Of a stretch of DNA of 64,000 nucleotides, positions 1 to 36,811 are shown in pieces. How positions within the stretch are numbered: position 1 is the first letter of the stretch; each line of letters starts with the position of its first letter. Source of the DNA: Actinomycetota bacterium. Lineage in GTDB: Bacteria; Actinomycetota; UBA4738; HRBIN12. The notes under the pieces were generated by a model. It searched no databases. It was given only the letters and a program-made list of their open reading frames with translations, and was not told where the DNA came from. A program made the position numbers and the translations under genes. Where the stretch lies: positions 11,548-75,547 of the forward strand of contig DASSCU010000043.1 in the NCBI GenBank assembly GCA_035697485.1, in the 5' to 3' direction.

Positions 1-899
1 ACTGGCAGCTCCGTGGAGAGCCCGAGCGCACCGTGCTGATCCGACGTGAGAAGGCCTACCACGGCATGCACACGGCGGGCACGTCGCTTGCCGGGATCCC
101 GGCGAACGCTACCGGCCACGGCGAGCTGATCGAGGACGTCACCGAGGTCCCGTGGGACGACGCCGAAGCGCTCCGTACCGCGATCGAGGCGGACGAGCCG
201 GCGCGCGTGGCCGCGTTCTTCTGCGAGCCCGTGATCGGCGCCGGCGGGGTGTTCCCTCCGCCGGAGGGCTACCTCGAGACCGCCCGCGCGGTCTGCCGCG
301 AGTTCGGGGTGCTGTTCGTGGCCGACGAGGTGATCACCGGGTTCGGCCGCGCAGGCGACTGGTTCGCGTCGACCCGGTTCGGACTCGAGCCCGACATCAT
401 CACCTGCGCGAAGGGCATCACGAGCGGGTACCTGCCGATGGGCGGCGTGATCGCCGCGCCGTGGGTCGCCGAGCCCTTCTGGGCCGAGGGCGCCGGACTC
501 TGGCGCCACGGCTACACGTATAGCGGCCATGCGTCGGTGGCGGCCGCGGCCCTCGCCAACCTCGACATCATCGAACGCGAGGGGTTATGCGAACGCGCCC
601 TCAAGCTCGAGGCGCCGCTCTTGGAGGCCCTTCAACCCTTGGCCGGGCACGAGCTGGTCGAGGAGGTCCGTGGTGGGGTCGGCATGCTCGCTGCGGTGAA
701 CCTGCGTCAGGATCTCATCGCGGACGAGTCTTCGCTGCCGGCGCGCGTCGGCATGGCGTGTCGCGAGGCCGGCATGCTGGTCCGCCCGCTCGTCGGCGGC
801 GCGGTCGCCGTCTCCCCGCCGCTCGTGATCGACGACGACGAGATCTCGGCGATAGCCCGGGCGTTCAAGGACGGGCTGGACGCGGTCGGGGCAGGCTAG
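1..899 (+). CDS. Class III (PLP-dependent) aminotransferase, C-terminal portion; the 5' end lies upstream of the window (codon phase starts at nt 3)
   Basis: Carries DEVITGFGRAGDWFA...PDIITCAKGITSGYLPMGG, the hallmark of class-III transaminases (BioA/GabT/omega-TA family). The frame runs open from the window edge to the stop at 899. Confidence 0.8.
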   Translation, partial: WQLRGEPERTVLIRREKAYHGMHTAGTSLAGIPANATGHGELIEDVTEVPWDDAEALRTAIEADEPARVAAFFCEPVIGAGGVFPPPEGYLETARAVCREFGVLFVADEVITGFGRAGDWFASTRFGLEPDIITCAKGITSGYLPMGGVIAAPWVAEPFWAEGAGLWRHGYTYSGHASVAAAALANLDIIEREGLCERALKLEAPLLEALQPLAGHELVEEVRGGVGMLAAVNLRQDLIADESSLPARVGMACREAGMLVRPLVGGAVAVSPPLVIDDDEISAIARAFKDGLDAVGAG

Positions 900-3004: not shown

Positions 3005-3835
3005 GTGAGCCTTGATCGCGAGCAGCTGCTGGGCGTCGCCCACGCCGAGCGCCAGCGCCTGGGGCGCATGATCCAGTACGCCGAACCGACGACCTGGGAG
3101 CAGCCGAGCGCCGCCGACGGTTGGTGGAACCGCGACGTGATCGCCCACCTCGCCGCGGGCGACACGATCGCGGCGCAGCTCGTGGCCGGCGAGCCGGCCG
3201 CCGAGCTCGAGGAGTGGCGGCGCGAGCATCCCGAGGGTCCGTTCGACATCGACGCGTTCAACGCATGGACCGTGGGTCGCCGATCAGGGCTCGAGACGCG
3301 GGAGGTGCTCACGCGCTGGGGCGAGGCGGCCGATTCGTTCCTCGCGCACTGCGCGACGATCTCCGAGGAGGACTGGGCCTCGAAGCGGTACGACTACGTC
3401 GCCGGTCCGATCGCCGCCCGGTACCTGGTGCAGACGAGGGTCGTCGAGTGGTGGCTGCACGGCGAGGATGTGCGGGCCACGAACGGGCTCGGCCCCGACT
3501 ACCAGCATTGGCCGGTCCACCTGACGATCGATCTCGCGGTCCGCATGCTCCCCTGGTCGCTGGGGCGTGCCGGCCTCGACCTGTCAGGTCAGACCGTCCG
3601 GGTCGACGTCGACGGCGCCGGCGAGGGTTCGTGGCACTGGGGTCTGGGTTCCGGCGAGGCCCCGTCGGGCCGTCACAAGCCCGACGCGACGATCGTCGGC
3701 CGGGCACCGCAGCTCGCGCTCGTCGCCGGCCAGCGACTCAAGCCCGACGACGTGCTCTCCTCTGGCAACGTGGTGCTCGGCGGCGAGCGCCTGCTCGCCG
3801 ACACCGTGCTCAGGCACCTGCGCGCGTTCCCGTAG
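3005..3835 (+). CDS. Mycothiol-dependent maleylpyruvate isomerase N-terminal / DinB-like domain protein (TIGR03083-type actinobacterial protein)
   Basis: 276 aa with an N-terminal HxxxE-type DinB/MDMPI-like region (WNRDVIAHLAAGD...). Strong SD GAGGAGGA sits 5 nt upstream of the GTG start. Confidence 0.55.
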   Translation: MSLDREQLLGVAHAERQRLGRMIQYAEPTTWEQPSAADGWWNRDVIAHLAAGDTIAAQLVAGEPAAELEEWRREHPEGPFDIDAFNAWTVGRRSGLETREVLTRWGEAADSFLAHCATISEEDWASKRYDYVAGPIAARYLVQTRVVEWWLHGEDVRATNGLGPDYQHWPVHLTIDLAVRMLPWSLGRAGLDLSGQTVRVDVDGAGEGSWHWGLGSGEAPSGRHKPDATIVGRAPQLALVAGQRLKPDDVLSSGNVVLGGERLLADTVLRHLRAFP

Positions 3836-3852
3836 GCCCGCGAAGCCTCGCG

Positions 3853-4839
3853 TCAGCGGGTGACCAGGAGCCGCTTCACGGCCCGTGGGGACGACCCGAA
3901 CCGGTACTTGTACCGGTAGTCGCCCTTCAGCAGGTCGAAGCCGCTGCAGCCCTGCTCGATCGCGAGGCGGATGTCCTCGCCGACGAGCACCATGCCGGGG
4001 GCGAGGGTCCCCCACGACCGGTCGAACGCGCTGTTGTAGAGGTACGACGTGCCGCCCCAGACGAAGCCGATCGTGCCGGCCGCGAGCTGGCCCCCCACCT
4101 CGATGAACGTCAGCCGGAACACGCCGTCGGCACAGAAGGCCTCGCCGAGGCGGCGGAAGAAGATCTCCATGCCGGGGACCATGAAGACGCCCTTGGGCCC
4201 CTCCGACGCGCGGTGCAACTCGACGAATCGATCGAGCAGCGGGATCAGCGTGCCCTCATCGGCGGTCACGATCCGGAACGCGCCGGCCTCCTCGGTGAGC
4301 TTGCGGGCCTTCCGCTTGATCTCGTGACGGTACTTCGACGAGAGCCCGGCCAGGTACTCGTCCCACGAACCGGGCAGGGGCAGGAACGGCGCCACCCCGT
4401 CCTCGTCCTCGCGCACGCCGAGTCCCTGGGCGTTGGCGGAGTCGCGGAGCAGCCCGAACCACGGCTGGTCCTCGAGCAGCCCCCGCAGGTCGGCCTCGGA
4501 CCAGTCGTCCCGCGCGAGCAGCGCGGTCCACAGCTCCTTGGCCATCGCGTCCTGCCGTTCGGGCAGCCCGACGGGCCCCATGTAGTCGGTGATCTCGGTG
4601 CCGCCGAGGAACCGGAGCGTGTCCCCGATGCGCTCGAACGCGACCGCCCCGACCTGGCTGCCGTCGTCCTCCTCGGCGAACGCGAGCAGCAGGTGCTCGG
4701 GCGTCTCCCCGAACTCCTCCCAGTAGAGCTTCAGGAAGGCCGGCGTGTGGAAGAACGACCCGGCGGGGTCGGTCTGTACGAGCTCGCGCCATCCACGTCG
4801 ATGGAAGTCCCGCCCGTCTTCGCTGAATACGATGTGCAT
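3853..4839 (-). CDS. GNAT-fold acyltransferase, FemAB/CelD/BioF2-like (Acetyltransf_6-type)
   Basis: 328 aa resembling the FemAB-like/cellulose-biosynthesis CelD-like N-acyltransferase family (...KYRHEIKRKARKL...FVWGGTSYLYNSAFD...). ATG start at 4839. Confidence 0.55.
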   Translation of the reverse strand: MHIVFSEDGRDFHRRGWRELVQTDPAGSFFHTPAFLKLYWEEFGETPEHLLLAFAEEDDGSQVGAVAFERIGDTLRFLGGTEITDYMGPVGLPERQDAMAKELWTALLARDDWSEADLRGLLEDQPWFGLLRDSANAQGLGVREDEDGVAPFLPLPGSWDEYLAGLSSKYRHEIKRKARKLTEEAGAFRIVTADEGTLIPLLDRFVELHRASEGPKGVFMVPGMEIFFRRLGEAFCADGVFRLTFIEVGGQLAAGTIGFVWGGTSYLYNSAFDRSWGTLAPGMVLVGEDIRLAIEQGCSGFDLLKGDYRYKYRFGSSPRAVKRLLVTR

Positions 4840-4889
4840 GCTCGAGGAATCCTAGGCACGGCCCGCGCCGGCGGCATGCCGGTGACCGC

Positions 4890-6668
4890 TCACCAGCTGC
4901 CGCCACCGCCTCCGCCGCCGCCGCCGCCGGAGAACCCGCCGCCGGAGAACCCGCTCGAGCCCGAGCCGGACGGGGTCGAGGCGATCGTGCCGCCGGTCGC
5001 GACCGCGAAGCCCTCCATCGAGTCCGCGAACTGCGCGTAGACGAACGGCCGCGGAGAGAGGTACCAGCTGGTGTCGGGCTCGATGCCGAGCGCCTCGAAC
5101 GCCTTCGCCCACTTGTCGGTACAGCCGAACACCACCGCGAACGGCAGGAACCGGGTGAAGACGAGCTCCTTCTCGGCCCACCGCGACATATGGGTCTCGG
5201 CCGTCTCGATCACGGTTCGGAAGCCGCGCACCCGCCGCAGCATCGCGGTGCCTTTCGCCGTGCGCGCCGGCATCCGCCCCGCCGAGGCCAGTAGCAGCAC
5301 GGCACCCAGGATCAGCGGGATGCCGAGCAAGCCCCAGTGGGTGAACGCCGCGAGCGCGAACGCGACGCCGCCGGCGACGATCAGCGCCACCACGCCCAGC
5401 GCGTACCACTTGGCGCGCACCTTGTCGGGACGCTGGCTGAACCAACCCCGCTTCACGGCGTCGGCGTAGAGCGACTCCTTGACGCCGTTGAGCCGCTCGG
5501 CGAACACGTTCTTCAGCTCCGAGATCGTGACCTCGGTGCCGTCGCGGAAGAGCCCGTCGAGGAGACGTCGCTCGTAGGTGAGCAGGTCGTCGTCGGACCT
5601 CTCCAGACGGATCAGGCGCCAGTCGGGCTTGCCGAACCAGCCCTCCTTGGGGATCTCCTGGATCAGCAGGTAGCCGCGCACGGCGAGGTCCACGAGGGTG
5701 GCCGACACGTCGAGCACGTTCGCCTGCTCGTCCAGGAGGGTCCCCATCTGGCCCGGACGCATGTCGTCGGGCGGCGCGAACTCCACCGGCGCGCTCTCGT
5801 CGGCCTCCCCCAGCCGCACCGCCTGATGCTCACCAGTGGGATTGCCCATGACCTGGTCCACCTGAGAGCCGCGGTACCGGCGGTCGCGTCCGCGGCCCCA
5901 GACGAGCGCGATCACGCCGCCGATCGCGGCGAGGCCGAGCACGGCCGTGCCCCCGAGGGTCGCCGGGGTCGCCGCATACGCGCGTCCGAGGCTCCAGCGT
6001 TCCTCGAGCACGGGCGCGGGCTCGGGGACGGCACCCTTGGGCAGGCCGACGACGATCGTCACTCCGCTGTACGAGCCCAGCCCGGTCTGGGCGAACCGCG
6101 CCTCGGCGCCGTCGGCGCTCGAGCGCAGGCACGGAAGGGTCGAGCCCTCGTACCCTTGGAAACAGGCCACCTGCGTGATGTCGGCGGGCGCGTGCACGCG
6201 TATGGTCGCCCGCTCGATCGGCGCCGACCACTCGGTGCCCACCGCGTTCCAGTACAGCTCGTCATGGTCAGGGAAGCCATTCAGTGCCGCCTCGACCGTG
6301 TACGTCAGCTCGTACGTGTGCCGGCCGGTGATCTCGGTGTCGGCGTCGCCGACGCGGATGCGGGTGATGCCTCCGGCCGCCGACTCCACCTCGTAGCCGG
6401 CGGGCGTGCCCTCGCTCGCGCGAACCTCGACCACGTCGAGCGGGTAGATGCGGTCGTACGTGTCGTCGTAGCGCAGGCGTGTCGGGATGTCACGAAGGAT
6501 GCCGTGCCGGCGAACCGTGCCGAAGTCGTAGTCGATCGTCTCCACGATCGTGAACGTGCCGTCGTCGCCGATCGTGATGTCGACGCCGTAATCGACGATC
6601 CGTTCGCTGGGCTGTGCACGGGCGGGTGCCGCGACGAGCAGGAGGGCGCCGAGCGTGGCGGCGAGCAT
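4890..6668 (-). CDS. DUF2207-family membrane protein with signal peptide, internal TM helices and a poly-Gly C-terminal tail
   Basis: Starts at internal ATG 6668 (MLAATLGALLLVAAPARA signal peptide). Large extracytoplasmic N-domain, TM helices around residues 250-280 and 440-500, C-terminus SGFSGGGFSGGGGGGGGGGSW. Confidence 0.65.
   Translation of the reverse strand: MLAATLGALLLVAAPARAQPSERIVDYGVDITIGDDGTFTIVETIDYDFGTVRRHGILRDIPTRLRYDDTYDRIYPLDVVEVRASEGTPAGYEVESAAGGITRIRVGDADTEITGRHTYELTYTVEAALNGFPDHDELYWNAVGTEWSAPIERATIRVHAPADITQVACFQGYEGSTLPCLRSSADGAEARFAQTGLGSYSGVTIVVGLPKGAVPEPAPVLEERWSLGRAYAATPATLGGTAVLGLAAIGGVIALVWGRGRDRRYRGSQVDQVMGNPTGEHQAVRLGEADESAPVEFAPPDDMRPGQMGTLLDEQANVLDVSATLVDLAVRGYLLIQEIPKEGWFGKPDWRLIRLERSDDDLLTYERRLLDGLFRDGTEVTISELKNVFAERLNGVKESLYADAVKRGWFSQRPDKVRAKWYALGVVALIVAGGVAFALAAFTHWGLLGIPLILGAVLLLASAGRMPARTAKGTAMLRRVRGFRTVIETAETHMSRWAEKELVFTRFLPFAVVFGCTDKWAKAFEALGIEPDTSWYLSPRPFVYAQFADSMEGFAVATGGTIASTPSGSGSSGFSGGGFSGGGGGGGGGGSW
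4899..4955. repeat. GCC/GGC trinucleotide tract plus a 15-nt tandem duplication encoding the poly-Gly tail
   Basis: ccgccaccgcctccgccgccgccgccgccgg followed by gccggagaacccgcc repeated twice. Seen directly in the sequence. Confidence 0.5.
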
Positions 6669-25225: not shown

Positions 25226-26041
25226 TCAGAAGAGACGGGCGGCGAGCTTGGGCCGGTACTCCCCCACGAGCGGGTCGTCCCCGAGGGTGGCGAAGATGTC
25301 GACCATCGACTCCCGCGCGGTGGCCGGGTCGTCGTCGAAGGCCGCGAGCAGCCCTTCGAGCGCGTCGCGCCACCTCCCCGAGGCCGCCGCCGCCCTCGCC
25401 CTCGAGATCGCGTCCTCGCCCGCGAGCGAGGCCCAGTCGTGAACCCGCACCGTCGCCATCACGCGTTCCGCATCGCGATCGGGCAGCAAGGGCTCGACGA
25501 GCGCCTTCGCCTCCTCGGTCTGTCCGCGGCCCACCAGGATCCGGGCGAGCCCGACCGCCGCTTCCCGGTTGTCCGGATCCTTCGCGAGGGCGTCACGGTA
25601 CCCCGCCTCAGCCGACGCGAGGTCGCCGGCGACCTCCTCCGCGAGTGCCTCGTCGGCCTCGACGTCGGCCTCGCTCGGGAGGATCGAGTCGATGAACCGG
25701 TTGACCTCGGGTTCGGGGTAGGCCCCGATGAACATGTTCACGGGCTGCCCACCACTGAACGCCACGACGGTGGGGATCCCCTGACTCTGCACCGCCTGCA
25801 ACAATGCGTTGCCGACGGCGTTGGCGTCGACGTCGAGCTTGGCCAGGAGGAACGCTCCTTGCCGCTCCGCGGCGACCTTCTCGAGGATCGGGCCGAGCGT
25901 GCGGCACGGCGCGCACCACGAGGCCCACATGTCGACCACGACGGGGCGCTGCATCGAGCCTTCGATCACCACCTGCTCGAAGTCGGCGTCGGTGACGTCG
26001 AGCACGGTGGTCGCGGTGCTCGGCCTGCTCATGTCCACCAT
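25226..26041 (-). CDS. Thioredoxin-domain protein with C-terminal TPR-like region (YbbN/CnoX-like co-chaperone)
   Basis: WASWCAPCR thioredoxin CxxC motif, followed by a helical-repeat C-terminal half. Confidence 0.75.
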   Translation of the reverse strand: MVDMSRPSTATTVLDVTDADFEQVVIEGSMQRPVVVDMWASWCAPCRTLGPILEKVAAERQGAFLLAKLDVDANAVGNALLQAVQSQGIPTVVAFSGGQPVNMFIGAYPEPEVNRFIDSILPSEADVEADEALAEEVAGDLASAEAGYRDALAKDPDNREAAVGLARILVGRGQTEEAKALVEPLLPDRDAERVMATVRVHDWASLAGEDAISRARAAAASGRWRDALEGLLAAFDDDPATARESMVDIFATLGDDPLVGEYRPKLAARLF

Positions 26042-26054
26042 GCTTCTCAGCCTC

Positions 26055-28265
26055 TCACACGCTCACGGCTGCGACGGGCGGGCGGCGTGACCCGCCGAGG
26101 TCGCCGCGATCGCGACCACGACCGAACCGGCGGAGGCGGAGCGCGTTCAGCACCACGGTCACGCTCGAGACCGCCATCGCCGCGGCCGCCCACATCGGAT
26201 CGAGCACCCCGAACACGGCGAGCGGGATCATCACGACGTTGTACGCGAACGCCCAGAAGAGGTTCTGCGCGATGACCCGGTAGGTCCGACGGGCGAGCTC
26301 GATCGCATCCGCCACCGATGCGAGCGAGCCTCCCAACAGGTTCACCTCGGCCGCGGCGAGCGCGACGTCGGTGCCCCTCCCCATCGCGACGCCCACGTCG
26401 GCCTTGGCCAGGGCGGGCGCGTCGTTCAACCCGTCGCCGACGAAGATCACCCGATGCCCGGCCCCCTGCAGCTGCGCGACCTCCTCGACCTTGCCCTCGG
26501 GACCGACCTCGGCGGACACGCGACGGATCCCGACATCGGCGGCGACCGCCCGAGCGGTCGCGCGATGGTCGCCCGTGACCATCGCGACCTCGAGGCCGGC
26601 CCCGCGGAGGCGGGCGACGGTGTCGCGTGCCTCGGGCTTCACCCGATCGGCCACGGCCACCACGCCGATCGGGTCGCCGTCACGCCACACGGCGAACGGG
26701 GTTCGACCCTCCGCGGCCAATCGGTCGATCTGCGCCTGCATCGCGGGCGACAACGGCCCCGCCCGTCCGACACGGACCTCACGCCCGTCGACCGTCGAGA
26801 TGGCCCCGAGTCCCGGTTCGGCGCGGTGCCGGTCCCCCGCGGGCACGTCGATGGCGCGCTCCCGGGCCGCGAGGACGATCGCCTCGGCGATCGGATGTTC
26901 CGAACCGGCTTCCGCCGCGGCCGTAGCTGCGAGGAGGGTGTCGTCGTCCACCCCGGGGGACGGAACGAGATCGGTGAGCCGCATCACGCCGTCGGTCACC
27001 GTGCCCGTCTTGTCGAGCAGCACGACGTCGGCGCTGCGAGCGGACTCGAACACCTCGCCGCCCTTGAAGAGGACACCCAGCTCTGCCGCCCTCCCCGTGC
27101 CCGCCATGATCGCCGCGGGCGTGGCGAGCCCGAGCGCGCACGGGCACGCGATGAGCAGGACCGCCACCGCATGGAGCATCGCCGCTCCCGTCGTCGCGTC
27201 GGTGAGCGCGAGCCAGCCGACGAACGTGGCCGCGGCGATCGCGAGGACGACGGGCACGAAGACCGCCGACACGCGATCCGCGAGGCGCTGGACCGGCGCC
27301 TTCGAACCCTGGGCGGCCTCGAGCAGGCGCACGATCTCGGCGAGCCGCGTCCCAGCGCCGACGGTGGTGACGAAGACGACCAATCGGCCGTTCCCGTTCA
27401 CCGTGGCCCCGACGACGTCGTCGCCGGGCTCGACCTCGACGGGCGCCGACTCGCCGGTCAGCAGCGAGAGGTCGACCCACGACGACCCCTGCTTCACGAT
27501 CCCGTCGGCCGGGATCGTCTCGCCGGGGCGGACGACGACGAGCTGCCCGGGGCGGAGGTCGTCGATCGGGACCGGCCGTTCCGACCCGTCGATCAGCAGC
27601 GTCGCCGACTTCGCCCCACGGTCGAGCAGCGCCCTCGATGCGTCGGCGGCGCTGGCGCGAGCGCGTGCCTCGAGCACTTTGCCGACGAGGATCAACGTGA
27701 CGATCACGGCCGCCGTGTCGAAGTAGTGGTCGTGTTCGCCCAGCAGGACGGCAGCGGCGCTGTACCCGTACGCCGACAGCGAGCCGATCGCGACCAACGT
27801 ATCCATCGTGGTCGCGCCGTGCAGGGCGGACCGCGCCGCTGCTCGAAGGAACGGCCAGCCCGAGTAGAAGACGACGGGCGTCGAGAGCAGCCATGCCAGC
27901 TCCTGGCTCCGCGCCGCATGCGGCAGGGCGAACGTGAGCCAGAGGACGGCGACCGTCAGCGGCACCGCCACCGCGAGCCTGCGCGCGTACGACCGTGCCT
28001 CGTCGGCCGGAGACCGTCGCTCGGTGTGGATCCGGGCGCCGTACCCGACCCCTCGGACCGCCTCCACGAGCGGTCCGACGTGGACCGCGTCGCGACCGCC
28101 CTGCTCCTCCCGGACCATCGCGGTGCGCGTCGCGAGGTTCACCGAGGCTGCCTGCACCCCCGGCACCCGCTCGAGCGCACGTTCCACCCGCTGCACACAG
28201 GACGCGCAGGTCATGCCCTCGATGTCGAGCACGATCGCGTGACGGTCGCTCTCCACGGGTCTCAC
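26055..28265 (-). CDS. copA: Cu(I)-translocating P1B-type ATPase
   Basis: N-terminal HMA domain [17 protein letters not shown] motif [18 protein letters not shown] phosphorylation site, and VTGDHRATA...[10 protein letters not shown]. Confidence 0.9.
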
Positions 28266-28522
28266 TTGCCCGCGAGCCGGCCCACCGCCGCCATCAACTC
28301 CTCGATCTTGGCCTCACCGCCCCCCTGCTCGATCGACTCGCGGACGCAGTGGCGCACGTGGTCATCGAGCAACCCCATGCCGACAGCTCGCAGTGCAGCC
28401 TGGACCGAGCTCAGCTGGGTGAGGATGTCGATGCAGTAGGCATCCTCGTCCACCATGCGCTGCAGGCCGCGGACCTGACCCTCGATGCGACGGAGCCGAT
28501 CCTGCACCGCCTTCTTGTTCAT
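28262..28522 (-). CDS. csoR: CsoR-family copper-sensing transcriptional repressor
   Basis: 86 aa [44 protein letters not shown]...HCVR. The Cys-His-Cys metal ligands are in the conserved positions. Its stop overlaps the copA start (ATGA). Internal ATG 28522 was chosen over the Arg/Ser-rich extension. Confidence 0.8.
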
Positions 28523-28547
28523 CTCGTAGCCGTACACCGCAGCCCCC

Positions 28548-28712
28548 TCACATGTGCCGCTCGTCGTCGGTGAGCGACAGGAAATGGTCGGGATCGTCCC
28601 GGAACCGTCGCATGCATCCGACCGAGCAGAAGAGATACGTCGTGCCTCCGTGCTCCCATGCAGCCGCGGCGGACGCTTCATCGACAGCCATGCCGCACAC
28701 CGGATCCTTCAT
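28548..28712 (-). CDS. YHS/TRASH-domain small metal-binding protein (54 aa), absent from the ORF track
   Basis: Translated by hand: MKDPVCGMAVDEASAAAAWEHGGTTYLFCSVGCMRRFRDDPDHFLSLTDDERHM. It matches the YHS domain pattern DPVCGM...YYFCS..C..F. SD GAGGAGG lies 7 nt upstream of the ATG, and the stop is 26 nt upstream of csoR. Confidence 0.7.
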   Translation of the reverse strand: MKDPVCGMAVDEASAAAAWEHGGTTYLFCSVGCMRRFRDDPDHFLSLTDDERHM

Positions 28713-28750
28713 GGGTCGCCTCCTCACACCTGGGTCGGTTCCATCGCGAG

Positions 28751-28770
28751 TATACCAGGGGGGGGTATCC
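28751..28770. promoter_or_regulatory. Candidate CsoR operator: G-tract pseudopalindrome tATACCAGGGGGGGGTATcc
   Basis: ATACC...GGTAT inverted repeat flanking a G8 tract, about 40 nt upstream of the YHS-csoR-copA unit. It resembles the GC-rich, G/C-tract-centred palindromes bound by CsoR in Bacillus and Mycobacterium. Confidence 0.5.
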
Positions 28771-28848
28771 GCATTAGGCCGTCGAGATCTCGGGTCGGCC
28801 GAGGACCCCGGTGTATGCTCGCCACACGGTGCAAGGAAGCTCGGTCAC

Positions 28849-29871
28849 GTGTCCACGCGGGTAGCGCCGACCCCCCACGGGGCGCTCGGACTCACCGACG
28901 AGGACCTCCTGGCGATGTTCCGCCTCGTGCTGACGGCCCGCCTGCTCGACGAGGCGGCCCTGCGCCAGAACCGCATGGGCCGGGCTCCGTTCGTCGTGCC
29001 CGCCGAAGGGCACGAAGGGTGCCAGGTGGGCACGGCATGGGCGATGCGCCGAGGCATCGACGTCTGGTTGCCGTATTACCGCGACGGCGGCGTGGTGCTC
29101 ACCGCCGGCATGACGCCTTACGAGATCTTCCTCGGCATCTTCGCGAAGGCCGACGACCCGTCGAGCGGCGGCCGCCAGATGCCGTCGCATTGGGGGCATC
29201 GCGCGCTCGGCATCATCACCGGCTCCTCCCCGATCGCGACCCAGGTGCCGCACGCGGCCGGCATCGCCTATGCGATCAAGTACCGCAACGAAGACGCCGT
29301 CGTGGCGTCTTGGTTCGGCGACGGAGCGACGAGCGCGGGCGACTGGCACGAGGGGCTGAACTTCGCGGGGATCCACCGCTTGCCGGTGGTCTTCGTCTGC
29401 GAGAACAACCACTACGCGATCAGCGTGCCGCAGTCTAAGCAGATGGCGATCGACGACGTGGCCGACCGGGCCGCGGGGTACGGGTTCCCCGGTGTCGTGG
29501 TCGACGGCAACGACGTGCTCGCCTGCTACGCCGCGATGAAGGAGGCGCACGACCGCGCCCGCGCCGGCGAGGGCCCCACGCTGATCGAATGCAAGACCTA
29601 CCGGTTCCTGGGGCACACGTCCGACGACGACGACAAGACCTACCGCTCGCGGGACGAGGTGGAGGAGGCGCGACATCACGACCCGCTCCACGTGTTCGGC
29701 GAGTACCTACGTTCGCAGGGCCTGCTCGACGACGTCGGTGCCGAGGAGCTGCGCGGCGACGTCAAAGGCGAGATCGACGAAGCCCTCGCAGCCGCTTGGG
29801 ACGCCTCCGACCCGGAGCCCACGTCGGCGCTTCGACACGTGTTCGCCGGCGACGACGAGGACGACCGATGA
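28849..29871 (+). CDS. Second TPP-dependent E1 alpha subunit (acetoin/pyruvate/branched-chain 2-oxoacid dehydrogenase type)
   Basis: GTG 28849 with SD AAGGAAG 8 nt upstream. TPP motif GDGATSAGDWHEGLNFAGIHRLPVVFVCENNHYAIS. Confidence 0.8.
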   Translation: MSTRVAPTPHGALGLTDEDLLAMFRLVLTARLLDEAALRQNRMGRAPFVVPAEGHEGCQVGTAWAMRRGIDVWLPYYRDGGVVLTAGMTPYEIFLGIFAKADDPSSGGRQMPSHWGHRALGIITGSSPIATQVPHAAGIAYAIKYRNEDAVVASWFGDGATSAGDWHEGLNFAGIHRLPVVFVCENNHYAISVPQSKQMAIDDVADRAAGYGFPGVVVDGNDVLACYAAMKEAHDRARAGEGPTLIECKTYRFLGHTSDDDDKTYRSRDEVEEARHHDPLHVFGEYLRSQGLLDDVGAEELRGDVKGEIDEALAAAWDASDPEPTSALRHVFAGDDEDDR

Positions 29872-30929: not shown

Positions 30930-33900
30930 GTGAACCCGCGCGATCACACGCCCAACCCCGACCGCGAGCGGTCGACGAGCCGGCACGACCTCACGGTCGT
31001 GCTGGGCGCCGTCGCGCTGTTCGCGATCGGGGTCGCCACCGGCGCGTTCCAGGTGATCCACGAATCCCTCGAGACCAGGGCACGAGGACTCGCCGACGCA
31101 GCCTTCGGGGTCCTCATCGTCGGCTGCTGGGCGGGCGGCGTGATCGCGCTGCTGCACCGTCGCCATGCGCGGGTCGAGCAGTCTCGGCGAACCGAGAGCG
31201 AGGCGAAGTACCAGGCCATGGTCGAGCAGGTGCCCGCAGTGGCCTACACGTGGGATCCGGCGCACGAGCCCGGCACCGTTCCGGCCACCTACATCAGCCC
31301 CCAGATCGAGCGCCTGCTCGGCTTCACGACACAGCAATGGATCGAAGATCCCGAGCTGTGGGGCCGCCAGGTCCACGATGGCGACCTCGACCGCGTGCTC
31401 TCGGCCTGGCACGAGGCGGTCGAGGCGGGCGATCGGTTCTCGGTGGAGTACCGCATCCGCACCGCGACCGGCGAGGAGCTGTGGGTCCGCGACGAGGCGA
31501 GCCCGTCTCACGGTCGGGACGGGACGCGATACCGCGGGGTGCTCTACGACGTCACGTCGGAGCACGAAACACAGCAGGCGCTCCGCGCCCTGGAGGAGCG
31601 GTTCCGGCGACTCGTCGAGCAGACACCGGGCATCACCTACATCGAGGACGCGGCGACCGAGGAGACCCTCTACATCAGCCCGCAGGTCGAAGACGTCTAC
31701 GGGTACACGCCTGAGGAGTGGATGGCCGACGCCGGGCTCTGGGCGCGTTCGCTGCACCCCGACGACCGGGCGTGGGTCGTGGCGGACAACGCCGCCGACA
31801 CCGAAGGTGTGTGGAGCGTGGACTACCGGTCCGTCACCAGGGACGGTCACACGATCTGGGTGCACAACGAGGCCGTGTTGATCCGCGACGACGGCGGCGC
31901 GCCGCTCTTCTGGCAGGGGCTCGTGCTCGACATCACCGAGCGCAAGGAGGCCGAGGCAAGGCTGCGCGAGGCCGAGGAACGGTACCGCCGGCTCGTCGAG
32001 CAGCTGCCGGCGGTGGTCTACATCGACGCGGTCGACGAGTTGGCGACCGCGCGATACGTCAGTCCGCAGTACCAGCGCCTCACCGGATACACGCCCGCCG
32101 AACGGATGGCCGACCCCGCGATGTGGATGAGGATGATCCACCCCGACGACCGCGAGCGCGTGGTCGCGGAGTCCAACCGCACGAACGAGACGGGAGAGGC
32201 CTACGACATCGAGCATCGTATCGTCCGCAAGGACGGGCGGGTCGTCTGGGTGCACGACCACGCCTTCCTGGTCCGTTCGGCCGATGGCGACGACGTGTGG
32301 CAGGGCGTGCTCACCGACATCACCGATCGCAAGCTCACGGAGGACGCCCTGACCACGAGGGACCGCATCCTCGAGGCGGCGGGGTACGCGGCGGAGCGCT
32401 TCCTGCGCGCGCCCTCGTGGCGGGATTGCATCGACGACGTGCTCGCCCGGCTCGGTCTCGCCGGTTCGGCCACGCGGGCGGCGGTGTTCGAGAACCTCGA
32501 CCGGCCCTTCGGCCCGCACGCGTCGCTGCGGCACGCATGGGTCGCCGACGACGCACCCACCGCCATCGACCGCCCGTCGTCCGGATCCCACCCCTACGGG
32601 GAGGGCCACGCCCGTTGGGTCGAGACGCTGGGCGCCGGCGATGCGATCCACGGTCCGGTGGCAGACCTCCCCGAGCCCGAACGAAGGACGCTCGCCGACG
32701 CCGGCATCCGGTCCACGATCGTCATGCCGGTGCACGTGCAGGGCGAGTGGTGGGGATACATCTGCTTCGACGAGAGCGACGAGGATCGGGCCTGGCAGCC
32801 CGCCGAGGTCGACGCGATCCGGGTGGTCGCCAACACCCTCGGTGCCGCGATCGAGCGGGAACAGGGCGCCCGGCGCCTCGGCGAGGCCGAGGAGCGCTAT
32901 CGAGCGATCGTGGAGCACGTCCCGGCCGCGATCTACCTCGACCGGGCCGACCGCTCGATGCACACGATCTATGTCAGCCCCCAGGTCGAGGAGATCACTG
33001 GGTTCACGCCCCAGGAATGGATCGACGAACCCGACCTGTGGCTGACGATCATGGCGCCGGAAGACCGTCCCGAGGCGGAGCGCACCTACCTCGCGTCGGT
33101 GACGTCGAAGCAACCATGGAAGGCCGAGTACCGGGTCAACACGCGCGATGGCCGCACGATCTGGTTGCACGACGAGACCACGTTCGTCACCGACGCGGAC
33201 GGAGAACCACTCTTCCTTCAGGGGGTGCTCATGGACATCACCGAGCGGAAGCTCGCGGAGCAGGCCCTGCGGGACTCGGAGCGCCGCGAGCGCGACGCCG
33301 CCGAGCGGCTCCGCGCCCTCGACGAGATGAAGAACACGTTCCTCGCGGCAGTTTCGCACGAGCTCCGGAGCCCGCTCACGTCGATCCTGGGGCTGTCGCT
33401 GACCCTCGAGCGCGCCCCCGGGATGACCCCGAACGACCGTGAGGACCTGCTCGTGCGCCTCGCGTTCAATGCGCGCAAGCTCGACCGGCTGCTGAAGGAT
33501 CTGCTCGACATCGACCGACTCAACCGCGGGATCGTCGAGCCCCAGTACCGGACGGTCGACGTCGCAGCCCTCACGCGTCGGAGCGTCGAAAGCCTCGACA
33601 CGACCGCGGGCCGCGTGATCGAGTTCGACACACCGCCGCTCGTGCTCACGATCGACCCCCCCAAGCTCGAGCGCATCGTCGAGAACCTGGTCGCCAACGC
33701 GGTGCGGCACACCCCGACGACCAGCCGCATCTGGGTCCGACTGGAGCCGGTCGAGGGAGGGGCCCTGCTCAGCGTCGAGGACGACGGTCCAGGCGTACCC
33801 GCCGAGCTCCGCGACGCCGTCTTCGAGCCGTTCCGTCAGGGGCCCACGGCGACGCCACACTCACCCGGGACCGGGATCGGCCTTTCCCTCGTCGCTCGCT

Positions 33901-34058
33901 TCGCGGAGCTGCACAGCGGGCGTGCGTGGGTCGACGAACGCCCCGGCGGCGGTGCCGCGTTCCGCGTCCTCCTGCCGTCGGCTCCCGGCACCGGCCCGAT
34001 GCCGGACCCCTGCCCCGACGAGGACGCCGCCGACACGCAGACGGCCGACGCGGTCTGA
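30930..34058 (+). CDS. Multi-PAS/GAF sensor histidine kinase with N-terminal TM helices
   Basis: Two N-terminal TM segments, at least four PAS-like repeats (recurring YISPQ.E...G.T..EW...W...HPDD), a GAF-like region, H-box SHELRSPLTSILG and an HATPase_c domain (GTGIGLSLV). Confidence 0.85.
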   Translation: MNPRDHTPNPDRERSTSRHDLTVVLGAVALFAIGVATGAFQVIHESLETRARGLADAAFGVLIVGCWAGGVIALLHRRHARVEQSRRTESEAKYQAMVEQVPAVAYTWDPAHEPGTVPATYISPQIERLLGFTTQQWIEDPELWGRQVHDGDLDRVLSAWHEAVEAGDRFSVEYRIRTATGEELWVRDEASPSHGRDGTRYRGVLYDVTSEHETQQALRALEERFRRLVEQTPGITYIEDAATEETLYISPQVEDVYGYTPEEWMADAGLWARSLHPDDRAWVVADNAADTEGVWSVDYRSVTRDGHTIWVHNEAVLIRDDGGAPLFWQGLVLDITERKEAEARLREAEERYRRLVEQLPAVVYIDAVDELATARYVSPQYQRLTGYTPAERMADPAMWMRMIHPDDRERVVAESNRTNETGEAYDIEHRIVRKDGRVVWVHDHAFLVRSADGDDVWQGVLTDITDRKLTEDALTTRDRILEAAGYAAERFLRAPSWRDCIDDVLARLGLAGSATRAAVFENLDRPFGPHASLRHAWVADDAPTAIDRPSSGSHPYGEGHARWVETLGAGDAIHGPVADLPEPERRTLADAGIRSTIVMPVHVQGEWWGYICFDESDEDRAWQPAEVDAIRVVANTLGAAIEREQGARRLGEAEERYRAIVEHVPAAIYLDRADRSMHTIYVSPQVEEITGFTPQEWIDEPDLWLTIMAPEDRPEAERTYLASVTSKQPWKAEYRVNTRDGRTIWLHDETTFVTDADGEPLFLQGVLMDITERKLAEQALRDSERRERDAAERLRALDEMKNTFLAAVSHELRSPLTSILGLSLTLERAPGMTPNDREDLLVRLAFNARKLDRLLKDLLDIDRLNRGIVEPQYRTVDVAALTRRSVESLDTTAGRVIEFDTPPLVLTIDPPKLERIVENLVANAVRHTPTTSRIWVRLEPVEGGALLSVEDDGPGVPAELRDAVFEPFRQGPTATPHSPGTGIGLSLVARFAELHSGRAWVDERPGGGAAFRVLLPSAPGTGPMPDPCPDEDAADTQTADAV

Positions 34059-36413: not shown

Positions 36414-36811
<398 letters not shown>

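Follow-up and report, generated by a model that had tools for sequence, protein, structure and literature searches.

A stand-alone YHS/TRASH gene at the head of a predicted CsoR-regulated copper efflux operon in Actinomycetota

The 64-kb stretch of DNA analysed here, referred to as the window, carries on its minus strand a compact gene cluster in which yhs, coding for a small stand-alone YHS/TRASH protein, is followed by csoR and copA (Table 1). A predicted CsoR operator precedes the cluster, and a gene for a thioredoxin-TPR protein, possibly a fourth member, follows it. The order yhs-csoR-copA is the one put forward in the initial annotation of this DNA; the csoR next to yhs is of the Cu(I) type, and the third gene encodes a Cu+-type P1B ATPase.

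Table 1. Genes and regulatory elements of the yhs-csoR-copA cluster, with positions in the window.
Feature	Position	Strand	Basis or remark
CsoR operator (predicted), ATACCCCCCCCTGGTAT on the minus strand	28752..28768	.	Motif uniqueness, published boxes, conservation
Putative promoter: -10 TATACT (28754-28749) with preceding TGn (28757-28755)	28749..28757	-	Within the operator right arm; inferred
Shine-Dalgarno sequence GAGGAGG of yhs	28719..28725	-	Read from the sequence; 6 nt before the ATG
yhs, 54-aa stand-alone YHS/TRASH protein, CopM-like	28548..28712	-	Pfam, homologues, pN/pS, AlphaFold
csoR, 91-aa CsoR, GTG start	28262..28537	-	Pfam, alignment to 4ADZ, homologue starts
copA, 736-aa Cu+-exporting P1B-1 ATPase with one N-terminal HMA domain	26055..28265	-	TIGR01511, Pfam, motifs
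Thioredoxin-TPR protein, 271 aa, possible fourth operon gene	25226..26041	-	Starts 13 nt after copA; membership uncertain

The yhs reading frame extends from an ATG at position 28712 to a TGA at 28550-28548 and has the translation MKDPVCGMAVDEASAAAAWEHGGTTYLFCSVGCMRRFRDDPDHFLSLTDDERHM. Its product matches the Pfam YHS profile (PF04945) with 53.3 bits and an E-value of 2.8e-14 (cut-off 30.3), the match spanning residues 1-46 and profile positions 1-45 of 47, which bears out the 54-aa YHS/TRASH module originally proposed on the minus strand. The strong Shine-Dalgarno sequence claimed along with it is present as well, and a purine-rich GGAGG-like block occurs at the same place in the aligned yhs upstream regions of relatives. 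The description of the gene as unannotated was right for the list of open reading frames then at hand but not for the public record, since NCBI names the identical protein HET6714358.1, "YHS domain-containing protein [Actinomycetota bacterium]", and this protein is found on 19 contigs. At JGI the product is labelled "Cu+-exporting ATPase", which is a mislabel; annotation pipelines already call the gene.

The YHS protein displays the pattern D-x2-C-x22-C-x3-C, in which D3, C6, C29 and C33 are the putative ligands. By sequence comparison, this spacing is identical to that of the YHS domain of the M. phlei adenylyl cyclase (D178, C181, C204 and C208), a domain that confers a copper-specific response (PMC4626032). 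We recovered 39 homologous protein clusters, mostly of 54 aa, and among 30 homologues D3, C6 and the AAAAWE motif are invariant, with C29 and C33 conserved in at least 90%. The pN/pS values range from 0.19 to 0.73, with synonymous variation within the invariant AAAAWEH motif, and by these measures yhs is under purifying selection. The AlphaFold model of the protein has a pLDDT of 95.8, and its best Foldseek matches are the YHS domains of phenol hydroxylase 2INP (probability 0.98, TM 0.65) and of the ToMO and T4MO hydroxylases, together with L24e and the ZMYM5 TRASH domain, all with E-values above 0.001 because the protein has only 54 residues; a sequence profile matches 2INP at an E-value of 1.2e-4. 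Neither Pfam nor NCBIfam detected an HMA domain in the product, which hence does not belong with the MxCxxC-type CopZ proteins, and the earlier statement that it has a different fold from CopZ is therefore correct. No NCBIfam model matches the 54-aa protein. Judged from its sequence features, yhs is a genuine 54-residue gene with a putative metal-binding product.

The csoR product matches the Pfam family Trns_repr_metal (PF02583) with 108.2 bits, and its best solved relative is the CsoR of S. lividans (4ADZ, 94 bits). Residues C35, H60 and C64 align with the Cu(I) ligand positions of 4ADZ and 2HH7, the HVRHC segment aligning with the ligand His and Cys of 4ADZ. Furthermore, the RLRR and CIDILTQ segments align with the RLXR motif and the conserved Gln of the S. 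lividans protein, residues that are needed there for operator binding (PMC3902906). The protein falls below the RicR-specific NCBIfam cut-off (109.5 versus 175). By these alignments, csoR encodes a Cu(I)-type CsoR with a Cys-His-Cys ligand set. A spacer of 10 nt separates the yhs stop codon from the csoR start, a GTG at 28537, and homologues start at the same place, as exemplified by the ATG in locus L001; the initial annotation had given a gap of 26 nt, which these homologues correct. An alternative start at the ATG at 28522 was rejected, as homologue alignment places it inside the gene.

The GTG start codon of copA overlaps the csoR stop codon by 4 nt (GTGA), an arrangement that recurs in loci L085, L087 and L089. 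CopA scores 544.6 bits against TIGR01511 (cut-off 397), has the Pfam domains HMA, E1-E2_ATPase and Hydrolase, and shows in its translation the motifs GMTCASC, CPC, DKTGT, YN (FAYN) and MAVSS. The yhs gene is located 283 nt upstream of copA on the same strand, with csoR in between, and the 10-nt yhs-csoR spacing together with the csoR-copA overlap makes co-transcription likely. No gene for an HMA-type CopZ was detected in the window, whose sole GMTCxxC motif is the one within CopA. Relatives of the 271-aa protein encoded after copA have Thioredoxin plus TPR_19/TPR_20 domains, and a consensus scan located no terminator-like site between copA and this gene. The thioredoxin-TPR gene follows copA in 17 of the 22 related loci with enough sequence and is missing from L083, whose three-gene cluster lies in a different neighbourhood.

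The initial annotation had also noted, about 40 nt further upstream, a G-tract inverted repeat of the CsoR type. This 20-mer, tATACCAGGGGGGGGTATcc on the plus strand, lies at 28751-28770, 38 nt from the yhs ATG, and its CsoR-type character is upheld both by its match to published operators and by its recurrence in related loci. The anchors TAC (28767-28765) and GTA (28755-28753) flank a C8/G8 tract, and the site, TAC-CCCCCCCTG-GTA at 28753-28767, agrees with the published box TAC-X9-GTA, in which S. lividans CsoR needs the TAC and GTA bases for binding (PMC3902906). The TACC-N7-GGTA core at the same positions is the sole match in the window, against 0.01 expected from shuffles. The operator also fits both of the CsoR boxes ATACCCCnnnGGGGTAT and TATACCCnnnnnGGGTATA (PMC5057107). 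With respect to the full arms ATACCCC and GGGGTAT, the left arm is perfect and the right arm reads CTGGTAT, that is, with two mismatches to the C. glutamicum-type box and one to the TATACCC-N5-GGGTATA type (PMC5057107). As the right arm is degenerate, the affinity of CsoR for the site may be low. Of the 50 distinct sites in the family, 13 have the T variant of the right arm, and all 13 come from the clade of the window; the identical 17-mer is present in L094, L095 and L097.

Scans of 25900-29100 for sigma-70 and terminator consensus sequences gave no match, and no -35 element was identified; the promoter call consequently relies on a conserved TATnnT. Position 20 of the site is T in 40 of the 50 distinct operators, which completes TATnnT, and the mirror position on the left lacks a comparable preference, being A in 11 of the 50. 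This asymmetrically conserved T supports a putative -10 element inside the operator. With the hexamer located in the right arm, bound repressor would block RNA polymerase. Rfam revealed no RNA element in the yhs leader, its sole match in the window being RNase P RNA. Additional control of the divergent E1 operon by the same operator was considered and rejected, given that some 55 nt separate the E1 -10 element (28814-28819) from the centre of the box, which lies upstream of it, and that the three-gene cluster of L083 keeps the box without an E1 neighbour.

Related loci were collected with a trimmed protein alignment (A3), which retrieved 80 loci from metagenome contigs. A degenerate DNA pattern for CGMxV-x4-AAAAWEH gave no match in metagenome contigs, although JGI members exist, and a scan of the genome collection with the full alignment was swamped by generic DPVCGMxV sequences, with one true subfamily locus (L001) among 80. 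Most YHS matches in the other 79 generic loci are fused to CopA as N-terminal modules of Cu-ATPases, an architecture described previously (PMC5552934). In the family itself, csoR lies directly downstream of yhs in 61 of 68 loci, and copA comes after csoR in 55, while 11 more run out of sequence. The search for the palindrome in these loci located the box upstream of yhs in 59 of the 68, in 50 distinct sequences, with its 5' end 28-75 nt (most often 53-57 nt) before the yhs start, and there it stands out as the principal conserved segment of intergenic DNA that has otherwise diverged. The background amounts to 10 matches in 254 kb, or about 0.008 per 200 nt; nine of the ten fit TACC-N7-GGTA, eight of them just after a yhs stop codon and one upstream of copA in L088, so that the background seems to consist largely of additional CsoR sites. 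Loci from Acidobacteria, Chloroflexi and Alphaproteobacteria have the same box ahead of csoR or copA.

The three genes stay together despite different flanking genes (L083). Many relatives have a second CsoR-like box between yhs and csoR, which suggests that yhs can be a transcription unit of its own and that only the clade of the window has the single-operon layout. Loci L116 and L121 show the order box-yhs-copA with no csoR in between, corresponding to the classic copZA layout, and L088 has copA-yhs and no csoR. In the archaeal locus L060, a gene for a 55-aa YHS protein stands directly before copA. A plasmid search returned only matches below 60% identity, mostly to ATPase-fused YHS domains, and the yhs subfamily was not encountered on plasmids. 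Gene identities, gene order and the operator motif, as well as the conservation of all of these, are thus matters of direct observation.

We propose that these genes probably constitute a copper-derepressed, self-regulated yhs-csoR-copA efflux operon, possibly reaching the thioredoxin-TPR gene, in which the YHS protein would act as a cytosolic Cu(I) carrier or buffer. The start of transcription, the binding of CsoR to the box, the binding of copper by YHS and its transfer are what we infer. At low copper, apo-CsoR would occupy the single operator and keep RNA polymerase off the -10 element. A rise in cytosolic Cu(I) would load Cys35, His60 and Cys64 of CsoR, the repressor would leave the DNA, and a single promoter, some 30 nt ahead of the yhs start, would drive all genes of the operon. 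The presence of csoR inside the operon means that the response would limit itself. The YHS protein, presumably the first and best-translated product, would most likely bind Cu(I) through Asp3, Cys6, Cys29 and Cys33, feed it to CopA and possibly load CsoR. Such a role would be that of CopZ in other CsoR regulons and the one proposed for CopM in archaea. CopA has an HMA domain of its own, and a separate copper donor would therefore not be strictly required.

A small TRASH/YHS chaperone adjoining copA has already been described in archaea as CopM (PMC3595675, PMC7830388), which is co-transcribed with copA and induced by copper (PMC3595675). Archaeal CopM (CopT in the copRTA nomenclature; Sulfolobus, Metallosphaera and Ferroplasma) likewise stands alone, measures about 55-70 aa and has the TRASH Cys pattern; it is encoded beside a CPC-type copA, as yhs is placed in a copA cluster, and is described as replacing HMA-type CopZ (PMC7830388). 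The N-terminal DPVCGM is common to both, the published copM primer encoding D-P-V-C-G-M (PMC3595675), and the 55-aa protein of L060 shares 52% identity with the window protein over residues 3-46. In contrast to the CopM systems, the host here is bacterial (Actinomycetota metagenome-assembled genomes), csoR separates the chaperone gene from copA, and an invariant AAAAWEH motif and a C-terminal Met are peculiar to the subfamily. Moreover, the regulator is a CsoR tetramer with a G-tract operator and not the archaeal Lrp-HTH plus TRASH CopT/CopR; because the adjacent regulator belongs to PF02583, the locus is not a member of copTMA/copRTA, and only its small protein is homologous.

Among bacterial systems, the closest parallel in gene order is the copZ-csoR-copA operon of Thermus thermophilus HB8 (PMC4938975), where, as here, the gene of a small cytosolic protein comes first, CsoR is encoded within the operon and a P1B-1 ATPase gene follows. 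The likeness to the copZ position pointed out in the initial annotation thus has a precedent for the order chaperone-csoR-copA. The CsoR-regulated copZA operons of S. lividans, Bacillus subtilis and Corynebacterium glutamicum share the operator type TAC-X9-GTA around G-tracts (PMC3902906), and the box ATACCCCnnnGGGGTAT is common to C. glutamicum (PMC5057107). Unlike in the copZ operons, the first gene here encodes a YHS/TRASH fold and not a ferredoxin-like HMA domain with MxCxxC, the right arm of the operator is degenerate in the clade of the window, and many relatives have the second box between yhs and csoR. The YHS/TRASH domains fused to ATPases, as in rhizobial P1B ATPases and the Bradyrhizobium-type CueA under CsoR, belong to the same domain family and are likewise associated with CPC ATPases, frequently with a CsoR box in the vicinity, as in L055 and L071 (PMC5552934, PMC5057107). 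Here, by contrast, the module is free-standing and the ATPase carries an HMA domain instead; a free-standing module can diffuse and could serve several partners.

The observations just described also bear on other explanations of the locus. That yhs is a spurious reading frame in a GC-rich leader, or the inverted repeat fortuitous, or both, is effectively refuted: short reading frames are common in GC-rich DNA, dozens being listed in the window, and the palindrome has an imperfect right arm, but the strength of the Pfam match (E 2.8e-14), the length-conserved homologues under purifying selection, the uniqueness of the palindrome in the window (0.01 expected) and the conserved position of the box (59/68 loci, the rate elsewhere being about 0.008 per 200 nt) all speak against chance. 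A role unconnected with copper trafficking is also very improbable, in which YHS would be a structural Zn(II) or Cys-cluster mini-protein, for instance a redox or thiol-stress partner of the thioredoxin-TPR protein, merely co-expressed with the pump. In keeping with such a role, the TRASH protein L24e binds Cd2+ via conserved Cys residues in a ribosome crystal structure, and the YHS domain of toluene-4-hydroxylase, solved with no bound metal, has no known role in copper handling, nor is copper implicated in the enzyme (PMC4626032). The presence of the thioredoxin-TPR gene after copA in 17/22 loci points in the same direction, but yhs stays in the cluster where that gene is missing (L083), YHS domains are tightly and widely associated with Cu-ATPases and CsoR across phyla, and a YHS domain of identical ligand spacing mediates a copper-specific response (PMC4626032).

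A more serious contender, which we still regard as unlikely, is that the YHS protein tunes the sensor and is not a donor to CopA: by buffering Cu(I) or handing it to CsoR, or by binding CsoR directly, it would set the induction threshold and the shut-off kinetics. CopZ reportedly acts as a Cu(I) donor for CsoR in S. lividans and for CopY in Enterococcus hirae, which counts in favour of this function, as do the HMA domain that CopA already possesses and the position of csoR directly downstream of yhs in 61/68 loci. The two CsoR-like boxes that bracket yhs in many relatives would make it the most tightly CsoR-controlled gene, and the invariant, subfamily-specific AAAAWEH surface and terminal Met suggest a dedicated protein partner. 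On the other hand, L116 and L121 retain box-yhs-copA without an adjacent csoR, L088 has copA-yhs without csoR, and, since most YHS domains occur as part of the ATPase polypeptide, the module is linked with the pump and not with the repressor. Sensor tuning and copper delivery to CopA are, moreover, not mutually exclusive, and we retain the copper-derepressed operon with YHS as a Cu(I) carrier or buffer as the preferred interpretation.

CsoR-controlled copper efflux operons are textbook systems, and the locus varies this familiar scheme of copper resistance without amounting to a novel type of system. To our knowledge, the small partner protein in every characterised bacterial case is the HMA-fold CopZ, and only for archaea has a chaperone with the TRASH/YHS fold been suggested, the copper chemistry of this fold never having been characterised for a free-standing protein. 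This chemistry is said to have been proposed in 2003, with demonstration for a chaperone reportedly still absent, and we know of no solved structure of a CopM-type protein. A literature search returned no paper that places a free-standing YHS gene in a CsoR regulon of bacteria, and the whole lineage studied here has a TRASH/YHS-fold protein in the CopZ slot. Tentatively, and with more doubt than confidence, we suggest that stand-alone YHS mini-proteins may be cytosolic Cu(I) metallochaperones of a second bacterial class, so far unrecognised, that has replaced CopZ in a soil and sediment lineage of Actinomycetota, that AAAAWEH may be dedicated to handing copper to CsoR and to the HMA domain of CopA, and that yhs, where it has two boxes, may be the most sharply copper-switched gene of the regulon.

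As pipelines already call yhs, the practical gain is modest. With about 50 distinct operator variants and two layouts, with one box or two, the family offers a compact study system, and, if the above proposal is true, it would for the first time open the copper chemistry of the TRASH/YHS fold to experiment in a tractable bacterial system. Questions that could be addressed in it are whether YHS modules carry Cu(I), how a donor without the HMA fold docks on an HMA-bearing pump or on CsoR, and how asymmetry of the operator tunes repression.

The peptide encoded by yhs, the small gene upstream of csoR, scored 53.3 bits against the Pfam YHS model (E 2.8e-14, cut-off 30.3) and weakly against a TRASH model, in agreement with the YHS identity first proposed for it. 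At a threshold of E 1e-9 or better, its homologues form 39 clusters in the protein database, most of them exactly 54 aa long; a 59-aa version from GTG 28727 in the ORF list was rejected, as homologues begin at the Met. A 30-sequence alignment shows no variation at D3, C6 or the AAAAWE block, with C29, C33 and H21 kept at 90% or more. A codon comparison of seven loci yielded pN/pS values of 0.19-0.73, and the codons of the four invariant Ala residues vary synonymously, which argues for selection at the protein level. The AlphaFold model (pLDDT 95.8) places two short helices after a beta hairpin; its top structural matches were the YHS domains of phenol, toluene/o-xylene and toluene-4 monooxygenase hydroxylases, with the TRASH proteins L24e and ZMYM5 also among the best, all statistically weak because the domain is tiny. 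Recurrent length, protein-level selection and a confident fold bear out the gene as real. It is not unannotated in public data, as the initial annotation had it, since NCBI already names the identical protein (HET6714358.1, "YHS domain-containing protein [Actinomycetota bacterium]"); JGI labels family members "Cu+-exporting ATPase". Within the subfamily, AAAAWEH (residues 15-21) is invariant (H at least 90%) despite synonymous codon changes, and residue 54 is always Met, immediately 5' of the stop; neither is general to YHS domains.

Coordinates of features in the window and in related loci (L-numbers)
Feature	Position	Strand	Remarks
yhs	ATG 28712 to TGA 28550-28548	minus	encodes MKDPVCGMAVDEASAAAAWEHGGTTYLFCSVGCMRRFRDDPDHFLSLTDDERHM
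Shine-Dalgarno GAGGAGG	28725-28719	minus	6 nt 5' of yhs ATG
Palindromic 20-mer	28751-28770
Core TACC-N7-GGTA	28753-28767
TGG-TATACT	28757-28749		putative extended -10
E1 alpha -10-like hexamer	28814-28819	plus	TATGCT or TAGACT, in conserved block GAGCATACACCGG (minus strand)
2-oxoacid dehydrogenase E1 alpha	GTG 28849	divergent	upstream of yhs
csoR	GTG 28537	minus	10 nt after yhs stop; 91 aa; PF02583, 108 bits
Thioredoxin + TPR_19/TPR_20 gene	25226-26041	minus	13 nt after copA stop
Multi-PAS/GAF histidine kinase (large)	30930-34058	plus	after E1 alpha and beta genes
RNase P RNA, bacterial class A	36415-36806	minus	full length; 207.5 bits; sole Rfam match in window
L044 boxes, csoR, yhs, YHS::CopA fusion	3354-3391, 3342-3743, 3763-3921, 3947-6394
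L141 yhs; L146 yhs	1346-1504; 407-565		52 aa, AAAAWE type
Second boxes in L085, L103, L105, L115, L118, L119, L125, L128, L133, L134, L139, L142, L143, L145, L148, L153	first ~20 nt after yhs stop

The best solved relative of the window CsoR is S. lividans CsoR (4ADZ), and its RLRR, the Cys of YCIDILTQ, Gln and the His/Cys of HVRHC align with Cu(I)-binding or DNA-contact residues of that structure (cf. PMC3902906). The yhs-csoR gap had been put at 26 nt from an internal ATG (28522); homologous loci start csoR at the GTG position, where L001 has ATG. Within GTGA, the stop of csoR and the start of copA overlap, and CopA contains one HMA domain, CPC, YN and MxxSS, scoring 544.6 against the Cu+-ATPase subfamily model (cut-off 397). 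No terminator-like site was found between copA and the thioredoxin-TPR gene, which may be a fourth, copper-co-regulated gene; the architecture of its product is like that of YbbN/CnoX.

The palindrome upstream of yhs was recovered as described, and its core is the sole match in the 64-kb window (0.01 expected from shuffles). Exact look-ups and two collection scans assembled 68 loci, including the window, of the AAAAWE[HY] subfamily, and in 59 of them TAC-N9-GTA occurs within 200 nt upstream of yhs, its 5' end lying 28-75 nt (mostly 53-57 nt) before the start codon. The 50 distinct sequences give the consensus ATACCCCC-N-GGGGTAT, identical to the published C. glutamicum CsoR box, which PMC5057107 gives as ATACCCCnnnGGGGTAT. 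The consensus likewise conforms to TAC-X9-GTA, the rule of PMC3902906, a study in which S. lividans CsoR no longer bound once any TAC or GTA base was exchanged, in line with the CsoR-type operator that had been suggested. In a multiple alignment of upstream regions, conservation between the divergent genes is concentrated mainly in this box, which also stands ahead of csoR or copA at loci from Acidobacteria, Chloroflexi and Alphaproteobacteria. Across 254 kb of the related loci the loose motif turns up at ten other places, nine of them also fitting TACC-N7-GGTA. Of those nine, eight sit 2-6 nt past a yhs stop codon and the ninth lies 5' of copA in L088, so that nearly all of the apparent background is likely to represent further CsoR sites. 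The window's own box (ATACCCCCCCCTGGTAT), weaker in its right arm, recurs unchanged in three independent metagenome contigs (L094, L095, L097), and T at position 12 is common to 13 of the 50 distinct sites. The nearest relative by protein identity (96%), L093, lies on a long-read contig in which many genes are broken, and its operator C-tract, two bases shorter than the window's, is probably a homopolymer sequencing error rather than a real variant.

In 40 of 50 sites the third base past the palindrome is T, a preference not matched at the mirrored position on the left side. This T and the right-arm TAT make up TATnnT, which we take to be the actinobacterial -10 pattern. A sigma-70 consensus scan gave no match; the window's TATACT, in extended form, would be the -10 element, with a predicted start near 28742 and a leader of ~30 nt. 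If this assignment is correct, CsoR on the box would occlude the -10 element. Control of E1 by the box was rejected as improbable, because ~55 nt separate the box centre from the E1 -10-like block within the 136-nt intergenic region.

Among the 68 loci, csoR immediately follows yhs in 61 (gap 0-62 nt) and copA follows csoR in 55, with 11 more running out of sequence. Where room remains, the divergent E1 gene is present upstream in 42 of 51 loci and the thioredoxin-TPR gene after copA in 17 of 22. The latter is absent in L083, where yhs, csoR and copA stay together despite different flanks, indicating that the three behave as a unit. The histidine kinase neighbour recurs in L081, L085 and L087, so conserved gene order reaches far past the copper genes. 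Other arrangements are box-yhs-copA without an intervening csoR, the copZA layout (L116, L121), copA-yhs (L088), and a 55-aa yhs immediately 5' of copA in archaeal L060. L044 (Bryobacter, Acidobacteria), with two tandem boxes, csoR, a 52-aa yhs and a CopA bearing its own N-terminal YHS, shows that a second phylum also has stand-alone YHS genes at CsoR loci, in another gene order. The 79 other generic YHS matches from genomes are mostly one to three modules fused to a Cu-ATPase N-terminus. L141 and L146 are a different context for the AAAAWE subfamily, with no csoR/copA downstream, no upstream box, and an inverted repeat CTAGTCTG...CAGACTAG after each YHS gene. The relatives are all metagenome-assembled Actinomycetota, so no cultured host came to light among them.

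The reading that these sequence data support best is an autoregulated operon of yhs, csoR and copA that is derepressed by Cu(I) and may continue into the thioredoxin-TPR gene. Cu(I) would release CsoR from the box, csoR would be repressed by its own product from within the operon, and the YHS protein would carry or buffer Cu(I) in the cytosol; we infer every functional step, from the site where transcription starts and the binding of CsoR to the binding and transfer of copper. In the main rival reading, the YHS protein works mainly for CsoR, setting a threshold or loading it with Cu(I), rather than for the pump. The invariant subfamily motif and the tight yhs-csoR linkage are compatible with it, as is the two-box layout of relatives: where the yhs-csoR gap is at least 23 nt, a second CsoR-like box (e.g. 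TACCCCCCTGGGGTA) lies 2-6 nt after the yhs stop, bracketing yhs between boxes ~220 bp apart. The clade to which the window belongs, with gaps of 10-14 nt, lacks this second box, which might serve csoR-copA as another promoter-operator or else act as a roadblock. For the YHS protein, serving CsoR and serving the pump are not mutually exclusive.

The Cu(I)-derepressed operon would work like a CopZ-CsoR-CopA system, and its gene order has a direct precedent in copZ-csoR-copA of Thermus thermophilus (PMC4938975). CopZ has an HMA fold, whereas no HMA domain was found in the 54-aa protein, which is thus not CopZ, consistent with the different fold claimed at the outset. By sequence it is a YHS/TRASH family member resembling its homologue, archaeal CopM, a 56-71-aa TRASH protein starting DPVCGM that is co-transcribed with copA, copper-induced and described as a CopZ replacement (PMC3595675, PMC7830388, PMC5328820). 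As the regulator that defines the archaeal cop cluster is missing, the locus does not belong to that system. Identical ligand spacing is seen in a YHS domain that gives an adenylyl cyclase its copper-specific response (PMC4626032). Literature searches found no paper on a stand-alone YHS or TRASH gene linked to CsoR; the parts are known and annotated, and their combination is a fresh variation on a known type of system. Unsurprising to a specialist, it is yet a useful test bed for TRASH/YHS copper chemistry.
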